A stretch of 7,111 nt of DNA from a virus (lineage: Duplodnaviria; Heunggongvirae; Uroviricota; Caudoviricetes). Positions within the stretch are counted from its first letter, which is position 1. Every line of letters starts with the position of its first letter. Made by a program: the position numbers and the translations under genes. The notes under the pieces are model-generated. The model saw only the letters and a program-made list of their open reading frames with translations. It did not search any database and was not told the origin of the DNA. Below are positions 3,422 to 7,111 of this stretch, piece after piece. Location of the stretch: IMG/VR virus record IMGVR_UViG_2585427777_000007, one strand, 5' to 3'.

Positions 3422-4022
3422 TTCGTTGTTACCACCATCAGCCAGCAATTTCATGCGTTGTGCCGAAGCCGTCGGAACACGCATTACAGACATTCCGGTA
3501 GACCTCAACACGTTGTGGTCGCCGGACACCTGCCCGGTGCATCTGCTGCCTTATCTCGCCTGGGCGTTTTCCGTTGACCGCTGGGATCGCAACTGGCCGG
3601 AAGAGACAAAGCGACAGGTAATTCGTGATGCATGGCTGATACACCGACACAAAGGGACCATCAGCGCACTGCGAAGAGCCGTGGAGCCTCTCGGCTACCT
3701 GATTGAAGTAAAGGAGTGGTGGCAACTCAATGAGGAGCCTGGGACATTTCGCATTGTTGTCGGAGTACTTGATCAGGGCATCACCGATGAAATGTATCAG
3801 GAACTTGAGCGCCTTATTGCGGATGCAAAACCAGTAAGTCGCCATCTGACGGGGCTGGCGATCAGCCTGAGTGTGAACGGAAAGATTTTCGTTGGTACGG
3901 GATGCTATTACGGCGACGCCCTGACGGTTTATCCCTACACCCCGGAGTCCATTATTGTCGAAGGGGATTATTTCCCTGCCCCGGCCATTCATTTAATTGA
4001 TAATCTGAGAGTAAACGCATGA
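3414..4022 (+). CDS. I: tail/baseplate protein I
   Basis: The ORF track frame starts at GTG 3381, but the ATG at 3414 overlaps the J stop (ATGAGTAA) and gives an MSNSLLPP... N-terminus like P2 gpI. Conserved ...WSPDTCPVHLLPYLAWAFSVDRWD... and ...ERLIADAKPVSRHL... segments. Stop TGA 4020-4022 overlaps the H start. Confidence 0.8.
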   Translation: MSNSLLPPSASNFMRCAEAVGTRITDIPVDLNTLWSPDTCPVHLLPYLAWAFSVDRWDRNWPEETKRQVIRDAWLIHRHKGTISALRRAVEPLGYLIEVKEWWQLNEEPGTFRIVVGVLDQGITDEMYQELERLIADAKPVSRHLTGLAISLSVNGKIFVGTGCYYGDALTVYPYTPESIIVEGDYFPAPAIHLIDNLRVNA

Positions 4023-5833
4023 CAGTGAAATACTACGCCATTCTGACTAATCAGGGCGCGGCACGACTGGCTAACGCGACGATGCTCGGCAGTAAGCTGA
4101 ATCTGACGCGAATGGCCGTTGGTGATGCAAATGGTGTGTTACCAACACCAGACCCTGCACAAACAAAACTGATTAACCAGAAACGCATTGCACCGCTGAA
4201 TCTTCTGAGTGTTGACCCTAACAATCAGAGCCAGATTATTGCGGAGCAAATCATCCCTGAAAGCGAGGGAGGATTCTGGATCCGTGAGATTGGTCTTTAT
4301 GATGATAAAGGTGTACTCATTGCGGTGGCAAACTGCCCGGAAACGTACAAACCGCAGTTGCAGGAAGGCAGTGGACGCACCCAGACTATCCGCATGATTC
4401 TGGTTGTCACGAACACCGAAGCCATCACGCTGAAAATCGACCCGTCTGTGGTTCTGGCAACCCGCAAATATGTGGATGATAAAATATCAGAGCACGAGCA
4501 GTCACGACGTCACCCGGACGCCTCGCTGACCGCAAAAGGCTTTGTTCAACTTAGCAGCGCCACCAACAGCACCTCTGAAACGCTGGCCGCAACACCGAAA
4601 GCGGTTAAGGCTGCATATGACCTGGCTAACGGGAAATATACCGCTCAGGATGCGACTACGGCACGAAAAGGCCTTGTTCAACTCAGTAGCGCCACCAACA
4701 GCACCTCTGAAACGCTGGCCGCCACACCGAAAGCGGTTAAGGCTGCATATGACCTGGCTAACGGGAAATATACCGCTCAGGATGCGACTACGGCACGAAA
4801 AGGCCTTGTTCAACTCAGTAGCGCCACCAACAGCACCTCTGAAACGCTGGCCGCCACACCGAAAGCGGTTAAGGCTGCATATGACCTGGCTAACGGGAAA
4901 TATACCGCTCAGGATGCGACTACGGCACGAAAAGGCCTTGTTCAACTCAGTAGCGCCACCAACAGCACCTCTGAAACGCTGGCCGCCACACCGAAAGCGG
5001 TTAAGGCTGCATATGACCTGGCTAACGGGAAATATACCGCTCAGGATGCGACTACGGCACGAAAAGGCCTTGTTCAACTCAGTAGCGCCACCAACAGCAC
5101 CTCTGAAACGCTGGCCGCCACACCGAAAGCGGTCAAGGCTGCATACGATCTGGCAAACGGAAAACAACCGGCAGATGCCACGCTCACTGCTCTGGCAGGA
5201 CTTGCCACTGCAGCAGATCGGTTGCCTTATTTTACCGGAGCAGACCGCGCAGCGCTGGCAACCCTTACAGCTATTGGTCGCGCTATTATCGCTAAGGGCA
5301 GTATAAAAGATGTCCTCAATTACCTTGGTTTAGGAGAAGGCTCGGCGCTACCCGTTGGTGTGCCTGTTCCGTGGCCCACCGCCACACCGCCAGCAGGCTG
5401 GTTAAAGTGCGACGGGCGCGCCTTTACAAAAGAACAATATCCTGTTCTGGCCAGAGCCTACCCGACCCTCCGTCTTCCTGATTTACGCGGTGAGTTTATC
5501 CGTGGATGGGACGACGGGCGCAAAGTTGATACGAGGCGTTCATTGCTAAGTGGTCAGGCTGCAACATTTATTCGTACAGCTTTGCAGGATTATTACGGTT
5601 ACGATCTGAATACTAATGTCAAAGTAGGTATCGCTTTTGCTACTGCTGATTCTGTTATAACCGTTGGAAACCCAGCTAATCCTAAAGCAGGAAATAATAG
5701 CGATTATGTTCCTGCATCAGCAGATAACTCCATAATGGGTACTCAAAGGACAGCGGAGGATAATTTTACCGGGGCATGGATATCAATGCGCCCCCGCAAT
5801 GTTGCGTTTAATTACATCGTAAGGGCCGCATAA
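4019..5833 (+). CDS. H: tail fibre protein H (P2-like N-terminal anchor, tandem fibre repeats, tail-collar-like domain, variable receptor-binding tip)
   Basis: ATG at 4019 overlaps the I stop (ATGA). 604 aa. N-terminal ~160 aa (...MAVGDANGVLPTPD...GGFWIREIGLYDDKGVLIAVAN...EHEQSRRHPDASLTAKGF) match the P2 gpH constant region. Then five copies of ...VQLSSATNSTSETLAATPKAVKAAYDLANGK..., the phage tail fibre repeat. The C-terminal ...PAGWLKCDGRAFTKEQYPVLARAYP...LPDLRGEFIRGWDDGR resembles a tail-collar domain, followed by a divergent tip ending RPRNVAFNYIVRAA. Confidence 0.9.
   Translation: MTVKYYAILTNQGAARLANATMLGSKLNLTRMAVGDANGVLPTPDPAQTKLINQKRIAPLNLLSVDPNNQSQIIAEQIIPESEGGFWIREIGLYDDKGVLIAVANCPETYKPQLQEGSGRTQTIRMILVVTNTEAITLKIDPSVVLATRKYVDDKISEHEQSRRHPDASLTAKGFVQLSSATNSTSETLAATPKAVKAAYDLANGKYTAQDATTARKGLVQLSSATNSTSETLAATPKAVKAAYDLANGKYTAQDATTARKGLVQLSSATNSTSETLAATPKAVKAAYDLANGKYTAQDATTARKGLVQLSSATNSTSETLAATPKAVKAAYDLANGKYTAQDATTARKGLVQLSSATNSTSETLAATPKAVKAAYDLANGKQPADATLTALAGLATAADRLPYFTGADRAALATLTAIGRAIIAKGSIKDVLNYLGLGEGSALPVGVPVPWPTATPPAGWLKCDGRAFTKEQYPVLARAYPTLRLPDLRGEFIRGWDDGRKVDTRRSLLSGQAATFIRTALQDYYGYDLNTNVKVGIAFATADSVITVGNPANPKAGNNSDYVPASADNSIMGTQRTAEDNFTGAWISMRPRNVAFNYIVRAA
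4535..5164 (+). repeat. tandem array of 132-bp (44-codon) repeats inside H: 4 full copies plus 1 truncated/diverged copy
   Basis: Unit starts at 4535, 4667, 4799, 4931 and 5063. Copies 2-4 (4667-5062) appear identical base for base by eye. Copy 1 differs at about 4 positions. Copy 5 diverges after about 85 bp and runs into unique sequence. Confidence 0.9.
5313..5338. other. candidate site-specific invertase crossover site (hix/gix/cix-like) at the H constant/variable junction
   Basis: TCCTCAATTACC TT GGTTTAGGAGAA is a 26-bp imperfect palindrome around an ACC-TT-GGT core. It resembles, from memory, the AAACC-NN-GGTTT core of Din-family sites, and it sits exactly where cassette homology begins. 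Not verified against a consensus. Confidence 0.3.
5327..5525 (+). repeat. direct repeat copy 1 (about 200 bp, roughly 90% nt identity to 5841-6040): conserved 5' part of the tail-fibre C-terminal cassette
   Basis: Aligns to 5841-6040 with scattered mismatches, from ggtttaggagaaggctcggcgct... through ...ggatgggacgacgggcgcaa. Encodes GEGSALPVGVPVPWPTATPPAGWL...LPDLRGEFIRGWDDGRK in both copies. Confidence 0.85.
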
Positions 5834-5852
5834 AAACGTTGGTTTGGGGGAA
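5827..5852. other. candidate site-specific invertase crossover site, second copy, immediately after the H stop codon
   Basis: CGCATAAAAACG TT GGTTTGGGGGAA has an AAAAAC-G-TT-GGTTT core at the start of the second cassette, in the same orientation as the 5313-5338 site. Not verified against a consensus. Confidence 0.3.
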
Positions 5853-6040
5853 GGCTCGGCGCTGCCCGTTGGTGTACCTGTTCCGTGGCCCACTGCCACA
5901 CCGCCAGCAGGCTGGTTACAGTGCAACGGAGCTACGTTCACCAAAGAACAATATCCTGTTCTGGCCAGAGTCTACCCGACCCTCCGTCTTCCCGATTTGC
6001 GCGGTGAGTTTATCCGTGGATGGGACGACGGGCGCAAGAT
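5841..6040 (+). repeat. direct repeat copy 2 (partner of 5327-5525)
   Basis: Same alignment as above. The offset between copies is 514 bp, so recombination between them would fuse the second cassette to H in frame. Confidence 0.85.
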
Positions 6041-6317
6041 TGACGAGGGGCGTAAGTTGCTTTCATGGCAGAAAGGTACACTGGTCGGCGGTCATGACGA
6101 TAACGATTCTTCGCTTGATATCTCGTACATGAGTAACGGAAATAATATTGACTATGGCGGCGATAAGGTGTTTGCGGGGAATTACCGTAGCGATTATTTG
6201 TGGTACGTAATTCTGGGTGGAACAAACAGTCGCGCAAAAGCCGAATTAAACGGAGCATTCTTTAACATAACCCGCCCCCGCAATATCGCGTTTAACTATA
6301 TCGTGAGGGCGGCGTGA
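5844..6317 (+). CDS. silent alternative tail-fibre C-terminal cassette (tail-collar-like domain plus different variable tip); no ATG or RBS
   Basis: Frame is open from 5823 to TGA 6315-6317; the ORF track's start at 5844 is a TTG with no Shine-Dalgarno. The first ~65 aa are about 90% identical to H residues ~441-505, the middle is unrelated, and the last 14 aa (RPRNIAFNYIVRAA) are again conserved. It is in a different frame from H, so it cannot be made by read-through. Confidence 0.7.
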   Translation: MGEGSALPVGVPVPWPTATPPAGWLQCNGATFTKEQYPVLARVYPTLRLPDLRGEFIRGWDDGRKIDEGRKLLSWQKGTLVGGHDDNDSSLDISYMSNGNNIDYGGDKVFAGNYRSDYLWYVILGGTNSRAKAELNGAFFNITRPRNIAFNYIVRAA

Positions 6318-6323
6318 TACCGT

Positions 6324-6938
6324 TCAACTGGCAAGTGCCAGTGGCGCTTCCGGCCAGCTGATTTCAGGTGCCGTGCTGATATCCAGTGCGTTCAGCTCGT
6401 CGATATAATCCAGCACGGCGTTCAGTTTTGCCGTTTCTTCTGGTGTCAGACTGCGACCAGCACGCAGTTTGAGGTTGATAAGATCGACTGACGCCATCGC
6501 CTGTTTCACCCGTTGCTGGCGTTGCTGTCTGGCAACCTCCAGTTCTGCGGCTCGCTGCCGTTCAGTATCGGTTACCCACGCCTCACCGTTCCAGGTATCC
6601 CATGGCGTGGCTGGCTGTTTTGTGGTGGTGTCCGCCGGGTAATCACCCGGTTGGGTAATCAGAACAGGGTTACCGTTCTCCGTGCTGTATACCGTCTCGC
6701 CGCGGTGATCAGGCACATGCTCCCACCCGTTCAGCGTGGCAGTCCGGCAAACCACGTAACCCGAAATTGCCTCCGGCGGTGCATCGGCGCACGAATGTGC
6801 CGGAGTACCCACCCCAAGGGCGAGATACTCCACAGAGGATGAGGTGTATTCCCGGGTTTCCTCGTCATAGTGATATACAGTGATATCGCCCGCTACAGTG
6901 GCGATACCGTTTTCATCCAGAACTGCAGTGTTACTCAT
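6324..6938 (-). CDS. tail fibre assembly protein (Tfa chaperone, lambda Tfa / P2 gpG family)
   Basis: 204 aa. ATG is the complement of 6936-6938, with GAGGG 7 nt upstream on the - strand. C-terminal ...YIDELNALDISTAPEISWPEAPL and central ...W.HV.DHRGETVY.....NGEAWVTDTE... parallel lambda Tfa (...RVDTSTAPDIEWPAVP; ...DHRGKTVY...WNGTAWVKDTE) as recalled. Convergent with the silent cassette, with only 6 bp between the two stop codons. Confidence 0.85.
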   Translation of the reverse strand: MSNTAVLDENGIATVAGDITVYHYDEETREYTSSSVEYLALGVGTPAHSCADAPPEAISGYVVCRTATLNGWEHVPDHRGETVYSTENGNPVLITQPGDYPADTTTKQPATPWDTWNGEAWVTDTERQRAAELEVARQQRQQRVKQAMASVDLINLKLRAGRSLTPEETAKLNAVLDYIDELNALDISTAPEISWPEAPLALAS

Positions 6939-7111
6939 TAAACTGCCCTCACAATGTAATTAAGTGCAATGCTACGGGGTCTGACAGTGATACCCTTCGC
7001 ATACCCGCTTCTGATAGAGGTCAGAATAGTAGCCTGCATACCATTGTCTGACATTGCCATGACAGGATTGCTGAATGTTGTCCCGTCCGGCATTTTAAAG
7101 CTGCCCTCACG
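6938..7111 (-). CDS. 3' end of a third tail-fibre C-terminal cassette (- strand), 5'-partial at window edge; stop overlaps the Tfa start (TAATG)
   Basis: The - strand frame is open from the window edge to TAA (complement of 6938-6940) and ends ...GITVRPRSIALNYIVRAV, homologous to the last 14 aa of H and of the silent cassette. There is an internal ATG at the complement of 7091-7093. It lies directly upstream of, and is coupled to, the - strand Tfa. Confidence 0.5.
   Translation of the reverse strand, partial: REGSFKMPDGTTFSNPVMAMSDNGMQATILTSIRSGYAKGITVRPRSIALNYIVRAV

Follow-up and report, generated by a model that had tools for sequence, protein, structure and literature searches.

The stretch of DNA analysed here (the window, 7111 bases) carries P2-type baseplate genes V, W, J and I upstream of a tail fibre gene, and these baseplate and fibre genes show 94-97% identity to those of P88-like phages (Xuanwuvirus, Peduoviridae). 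Judged from its sequence, the host phage is a P2-like (P88-like, Xuanwuvirus) E. coli prophage. The following features lie in the fibre region of the window:

4019..5833, + strand: tail fibre gene, constant part and tip cassette 1 (c1) as now assembled, 604 aa (ORF list, Pfam)
5325..5340, + strand: core of crossover site 1, TTGGTTTAGGAGAAGG, where the constant part meets cassette 1 (pattern search, e14 match)
5839..5854, + strand: core of crossover site 2, TTGGTTTGGGGGAAGG, between the c1 stop and c2, direct with respect to site 1 (pattern search, context alignment)
5844..6317, + strand: tip cassette 2 (c2), silent, 157 codons (ORF list, Pfam Collar)
6324..6938, - strand: tfa, tail fibre assembly chaperone gene, 204 aa (ORF list, Pfam Caudo_TAP, RefSeq)
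6936..6952, - strand: terminal junction GTGAGGGCAGTTTAATG, comprising codons V-R-A-V, the stop, a GAGG run and the overlapping ATG (sequence reading)
6938..7111, - strand: last 57 codons and stop of the silent tip cassette 3 (c3) (translation; full cassette in AR_0015)
7091..7110, - strand: internal look-alike GTGAGGGCAGCTTTAAAATG, in the cassette frame (R)-E-G-S-F-K-M, within the variable receptor-binding part (sequence reading, repeat search)

Pfam analysis of the 604-aa fibre ORF recognized a Phage_tail_fib N-terminal domain (E=1.3e-61), five Phage_fiber_2 repeats and a Collar domain at residues 447-494. The Phage_fiber_2 repeats of the shaft are encoded by 4.8 tandem copies of a 132-bp unit (window 4534-5164, 98% matches), and their copy number and type vary among relatives: the fibre of E. 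coli MS10860 is 10 aa shorter overall, and the shafts of C7 and phage 503046 differ from that of the window in repeat units and lengths. The ORF at 5844-6317 (c2) likewise matched Collar (E=1.4e-15) and has in the window neither its own promoter nor its own 5' constant part, while in E. coli MS10860 the same cassette is joined to the constant part, giving a 594-aa fibre. The end of c2 is 6 nt away from the convergent stop of tfa, whose product matched Caudo_TAP (PF02413) with E=3.5e-28, above the cut-off, and is listed in RefSeq as WP_000072166.1, tail fiber assembly protein. In cassettes of the c1 type the stop leads straight into the next crossover site (…TAA/TGA AAACGTTGGTTT) and never into a tfa ATG, as observed at window positions 5330-6938 and in at least nine viral-contig loci (L064, L066-L068, L071, L073, L076 and L095 among them).

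On the - strand, the region 6938-7111 is open up to the window edge and reads REGSFKMPDGTTFSNPVMAMSDNGMQATILTSIRSGYAKGITVRPRSIALNYIVRAV*, i.e., REGSFKMPDG...NYIVRAV-TAA; the cassette tips end with ...RPR(N/S)IA(F/L)NYIVRA(A/V). The c3 stop TAA at 6940-6938 shares its last A with the tfa ATG (6938-6936), which gives TAATG at 6936-6940 and an overlap of one base, so that the Caudo_TAP gene follows immediately downstream of the tip stop. The earlier note had read this edge as the 3'-terminal part of a third tip cassette, stop/start-coupled to tfa, and the open frame, the TAATG and the Caudo_TAP match all agree with that reading. The - strand ORF at 6938-7093 (51 aa) at the window edge should be regarded neither as a gene nor as a mini-cassette, being the tail of a silent cassette of 170 codons. 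The terminal junction itself reads GTG AGG GCA GTT TAA (V-R-A-V-stop) and contains GAGG, a Shine-Dalgarno (SD)-like purine run located 8 nt before the tfa ATG, a position that suggests that it is the ribosome-binding site of tfa. The Rfam search of the window yielded 0 matches and thus no RNA element at the c3/tfa junction, and promoter-like and terminator-like matches over 5700-7111 were no commoner than in shuffles, with none at 6938-7111; an RNA element or terminator at this junction was rejected on the basis of the Rfam result and the shuffle-level motif counts.

In order to place the junction in a wider context, 98 loci were collected whose Collar tips are of the c3 type or related to it, comprising 18 loci of a c3 lineage with at least 95% amino acid identity (E. 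coli) and 80 diverged ones. A terminal junction of the GTNAGRGC type was present in 79 of the 80 diverged loci, and a stop overlapping the ATG of the next gene in 68 of these 80. The terminal junction GTGAGGGCAGTTTAATG, combining the last codons, an SD-like sequence and an overlapping stop/ATG, can therefore be regarded as a functional element common to the family. Within the c3 lineage, the 174 bases available in the window differ from c3 of MS10860 by one nucleotide (D to N). Amino acid differences among near-identical c3 copies cluster at 7060-7075 (- strand), in FS(N/D)P(V/A)(M/V/I)AMS; these codons are located just after the internal motif, and the window has N where every relative seen has D. 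This stretch may represent a receptor-contact loop.

The part past 7111, with the remainder of c3, the c3 crossover site and the invertase, was deduced from E. coli relatives that are 98.8-99.3% identical, as a 55-nt pattern containing the SNP peculiar to the window had no exact match in genome_contigs and a protein-based scan of the same collection was likewise negative. Four relatives were examined, namely E. coli AR_0015, MS10860, C7 and phage 503046; the module as such was found in approximately 800 complete E. coli genomes. AR_0015 matches the window over 5150-7111 in one piece (98.8%) and has the same arrangement, in the order constant part-c1, c2, tfa (-), a 170-aa c3 (-), site GAGATAAACGTTGGTTTGGGGGAAGG and a 190-aa recombinase. 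Its c3 is a full 170-aa ORF with a Collar domain, 113 codons longer than the part displayed in the window, and extends up to a pix-like crossover site. The earlier note had proposed extending the - strand frame in search of a full collar-plus-tip cassette and a crossover site, and had considered that stops just past 7111 without collar homology would mark a degenerate remnant. In AR_0015 a full Collar cassette and a crossover site do precede tfa on the - strand, and the frame meets no early stops but runs through the Collar domain to that site.

The other relatives displayed different arrangements of the same parts. MS10860 carries a P88-like prophage as in the window (99.3% identity) in another isomer, with the order constant-c2, tfa (-), c3 (-), c1 (-), recombinase and tail genes. 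In C7 and phage 503046, c3 is joined in frame to the fibre constant part (ORFs of 669 aa and 545 aa, respectively) and followed by tfa, which supports the earlier proposal that c3-tfa is a unit expressed after inversion; c2 and c1 are inverted beside the recombinase in C7, and c2 is inverted beside it in phage 503046. Near-identical DNA was thus found as constant-c1 (window, AR_0015), constant-c2 (MS10860) and constant-c3-tfa (C7, phage 503046). The tfa gene is antisense to the fibre operon in the isomer of the window and in MS10860, and only in the c3-ON isomers does it share the orientation of the expressed tip, with translational coupling between the two. The module of phage 503046 (L003 3367-6742, CP025887.1) is without c1 and consists of invertase, c2, tfa' and c3 fused to the constant part, a layout that a deletion between two directly repeated crossover sites would leave. 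Moreover, the three-cassette/tfa/invertase module is joined to two unrelated fibre constant parts (L001 10139-12148 and L004 2690-4684 as compared to window 4019-5320), one of them P2-H-like, MTVKYYAILTNQ..., in the window and MS10860, and the other, MIMGNLNETEKW..., in C7, AR_0015 and phage 503046. The fact that these have in common only the last ~60 codons before the crossover site indicates that the module moves between phage backbones. A related switch on a metagenomic contig (L005 1-4434, JGI 3300026383) contains three tip ORFs, two with Collar and one of 221 aa without a Pfam match; a 44-aa ORF follows the first cassette, and two complete tfa genes and an invertase of the resolvase type are also encoded there, which implies that multi-cassette versions with differing chaperone complements exist.

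The pattern search with the core TTGGTTTRGGRGAAGG returned two matches in the window, both in direct orientation, where 0 were expected by chance. These window sites are identical to the inverted repeat of the e14 P segment, TTGGTTTGGGAGAAGG, at 15 of 16 positions (PMC12529663). A third site, inverted, is present at the start of c3 in the relatives; when this copy is included, short crossover sites within the fibre ORF follow the pattern AAAC(C/G)-NN-GGTTT and at least one pair of them is inverted, as is characteristic of the Din family. Alignment of eight site contexts revealed that the left side depends on what adjoins the site there (the constant part, the end of c1 or the side of the invertase) and that the right side is common to all. 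A serine recombinase gene, located outside the window, accompanies the module in every relative examined (L004 6373-6945, L002 10123-10722, L001 7887-8459); it was recognized as Pfam Resolvase (E=8e-51) with HTH_7, and the recombinase of the closest relative matched the Gin structure 4M6F with E=2.4e-91 over 185 residues. Two further Din-family features are thus present: in the relatives, a small serine recombinase with a Resolvase catalytic domain and a C-terminal HTH next to invertible DNA and, at the fibre gene, alternative 3' segments on one constant 5' part. With three crossover sites, three tip cassettes and one tfa, the locus also displays the Min-like combination of more than two sites, one invertase and more than two isomers. 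Two direct sites and one inverted site allow four isomers, three of which were seen, and any one of these can be reached from another by a single inversion. The locus can accordingly be classified, by its site and gene arrangement, as a small multiple-inversion system of the Din family, and the isomers in different genomes suggest that its invertase is active.

The earlier note had drawn attention to a second copy of the junction sequence about 150 bp upstream on the - strand, which it took for a frame-shifted cassette-end/ATG junction. Its position at 7091-7110 is exact, and the first motif is the complement of 6936-6952, one nucleotide off the 6937-6953 given at the time. The recurrence and the change of frame were both confirmed: the exact 10-mer GTGAGGGCAG occurs at two places only in the window, 158 nt apart, and the frames of the terminal and the internal copy differ by one. 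In the c3 frame the second motif reads CGT GAG GGC AGC TTT AAA ATG, i.e., R-E-G-S-F-K-M, codons 114-120 of 170, and thus lies inside an intact cassette, so that its description as a second cassette-end/ATG junction does not hold. As to the proposed alignment of the two regions, the repeat search paired 6940-6952 with 7098-7110 (13 nt, 92%), and the likeness of the two motifs ends past ~16 aligned positions.

The statistical weight of this resemblance depends on the amount of sequence considered. When the 182-nt region is taken alone, a local exact 10-mer repeat arises in 0.8% of shuffles; for the whole window, the expected number of local 10-mer pairs (within 200 nt) is 1.7, at least one being found in 76% of shuffles, and six further such pairs are present in the window outside the tandem array. 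Gapped alignment of the 26-nt terminal junction with the c3 body resulted in a score of 25 over 16 columns, with P ~7e-4 against cassette-body shuffles and 0.02 against whole-window shuffles of both strands. The resemblance of the motifs is real but short, and given the amount of sequence scanned it exceeds chance only weakly. Two explanations of the second motif were discarded. A tandem duplication within c3 was rejected on the basis of the self-alignment of the cassette, in which no internal duplication was detected (DNA P=0.89; protein P=0.057), and a role of the motif as crossover site was rejected because it is without the core TTGGTTTRGGRGAAGG, both window matches of which lie elsewhere.

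Comparison among the collected loci was decisive. Internal GTGAGGGCAG was found in 18/18 loci of the c3 lineage with at least 95% amino acid identity and in the cassette body of 0/80 diverged loci, and the 8-mer GTGAGGGC was likewise found in none of these 80. The nearest diverged relatives, ~61% identical to c3, read CAGCAATATGATTTCAAAATG at the position of the motif; their codons in this part are GAT ATG CAG CAA TAT GAT TTC AAA ATG CC (DMQQYDFKMPD) or ...CAA TCT GGC TTT AAA ATG CC. F-K-M-P, and with it TTYAAAATG, is retained in them, and R-E-G is absent. Since the internal copy is confined to a near-clonal lineage and the terminal junction is family-wide, the former is best explained by a coincidence of codon choice. 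The internal motif would therefore be a short, lineage-specific look-alike within coding sequence, although the P of ~7e-4 for the targeted match leaves pure chance as its origin short of proof.

The view of the earlier note was that the second motif is a degenerate cassette-end/tfa-ATG junction, left as a scar of cassette exchange or as a remnant cassette end upstream of a 51-codon mini-cassette. This is in line with the exact 10-mer in common and the TTTAA..ATG with small indels, with the P of the targeted alignment, and with the likeness of the motif to the c2 end CGTGAGGGCGGC as well (12 nt, 92%); moreover, cassettes do swap segments, as seen from a frame-broken mosaic (L006 5985-6262) in which an unrelated cassette body, a 103-nt patch identical to c3, a 102-nt gap as compared to c3 and a c1-like end follow one another, indicating segment exchange between cassettes within a locus. 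However, the likeness is limited to the ~16 positions described above, and the V-R-A frame upstream of the internal motif, TMKIPLQTFVRAALKC (TMKIPLQTF), displayed no homology to RPRN.A.NYIVRAA and has a stop ~10 codons upstream (read by hand). The motif is in frame in an intact cassette and is part of full-length fibres in other genomes. Furthermore, c3 (170 aa) and c1 (167 aa) align collinearly without an added segment in c3, the internal motif being placed opposite TVGNPANPK in the variable part of c1, and the self-alignment gave no duplication signal. Together with the absence of the motif from all 80 diverged loci and the lack of R-E-G in the ~61% relatives, these results make a scar or remnant cassette very improbable, and this proposal of the earlier note was abandoned.

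The same mosaic may be considered from another side, as the motif could be a point of micro-homology at which cassettes recombine preferentially, in an illegitimate or homeologous manner, and could so contribute to mosaic tips. In the invertase-proximal cassette of L006 (GCA_902668635.1), the 103-nt patch identical to c3 ends exactly after GGCAGCTTTAA. Nevertheless, this is one case only, and it produced a cassette with a broken frame; what follows the patch does not start with the continuation of the terminal junction, and no other breakpoint at the internal motif was observed among the 98 loci, for which reason we consider such a hot spot very unlikely, if slightly less so than the scar. Still more improbable, and the least probable of these explanations, is a working internal translation start at the ATG at 7093-7091, from which the last 51 residues of the tip would be made as a separate peptide. 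Its architecture of SD-like purine run, A/T-rich spacer and ATG is the same as that of the genuine tfa start, and the Met is kept, within F-K-M-P-D, in relatives at 61-83% identity. Yet the SD-like GAGGG is missing where the Met is kept, these relatives reading CAACAATCTGGCTTTAAAATG or CAGCAATATGATTTCAAAATG, and at 10-11 nt GAGG stands farther from the ATG than it does in front of tfa. Moreover, the Met itself is absent from homologues that are further removed, and there is no known need for such a peptide. Taken in general terms, the idea that the internal look-alike is not neutral, either as a micro-homology point seeding mosaic tips or as a secondary SD and ATG start in the c3 lineage, is granted a very small probability.

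Taken all together, the window very probably ends inside a Gin/Pin-type (Din-family) inversion module that swaps the fibre tip of a P88-like prophage, with the second motif as a look-alike. In this layout, the constant 5' part of one fibre gene is combined with one of three 3' cassettes without promoters (c1, c2 and c3), each of which starts with a pix-like crossover site followed by a Collar domain and a variable tip. In the state captured by the window, c1 is placed on the constant part, c2 lies next to it in the same orientation, and tfa and c3 are inverted. The Gin-like serine invertase, encoded just past the right edge in relatives, would invert the DNA between oppositely oriented sites, and inversion between site 1 and the c3 site would give constant part-c3-tfa, with the chaperone gene co-transcribed and translationally coupled. 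The second motif would be fortuitous, arising from the codons R-E-G-S-F-K-M in one recent lineage, and would have no separate function. With three Collar-type tips this prophage family could present three receptor specificities, which would be relevant to host-range prediction and to the engineering of P2-like phages and tailocins. Beyond this, the region is mainly a matter of correct annotation, as host-range switches of this kind are familiar from Mu, P1 and e14.

That programmed inversions act on fibre genes is well documented (PMC9881135). The e14 P segment with Pin (pinE, pinQ, pinR) of E. coli K-12 resembles the window module in having a serine invertase and sites inside the fibre ORF, and inversion of its segment at the repeats TTGGTTTGGGAGAAGG by PinQ, PinE and PinR was demonstrated experimentally (PMC12529663). 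There, as here, inversion swaps the fibre 3' ends and tfa lies inside the invertible segment (PMC12529663). However, e14 possesses two sites and two cassettes with one tfa per cassette (tfaP, tfaE), as compared to three sites, three cassettes and one tfa here, and the window module, unlike e14, resides in an intact-looking P2-like prophage. The Mu G segment with Gin and the P1 C segment with Cin share with the present locus a constant 5' part, alternative 3' parts and a chaperone gene directly downstream of the tip gene; they are built symmetrically as Sv-U / U'-S'v, whereas here the cassettes are of the Collar-domain (PF07484) type and two of them are without a chaperone gene. P88 (Xuanwuvirus) is 95% identical to the window in the baseplate and fibre 5' part and its invertase, too, separates the fibre module from the tail genes, but it carries a classical two-cassette, two-tfa module (fibre-tfa / tfa-fibre' / DNA invertase) in place of the three-cassette, one-tfa, Collar-type module of the window. 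The Min system of plasmid p15B likewise combines one Din-family invertase with crossover sites and alternative fibre 3' segments that number more than two each, and forms several isomers; with six sites and many more segments it is larger than the window module. The two are likened here by architecture, six sites in p15B standing against three sites and four possible isomers in the window module. The name Min, as a multiple-inversion system, and its place in the Din family follow a work cited in PMC6906374. The kind of system is therefore known, and it is the three Collar-type cassettes with a single tfa that set this locus apart from Mu, P1, e14 and P88.
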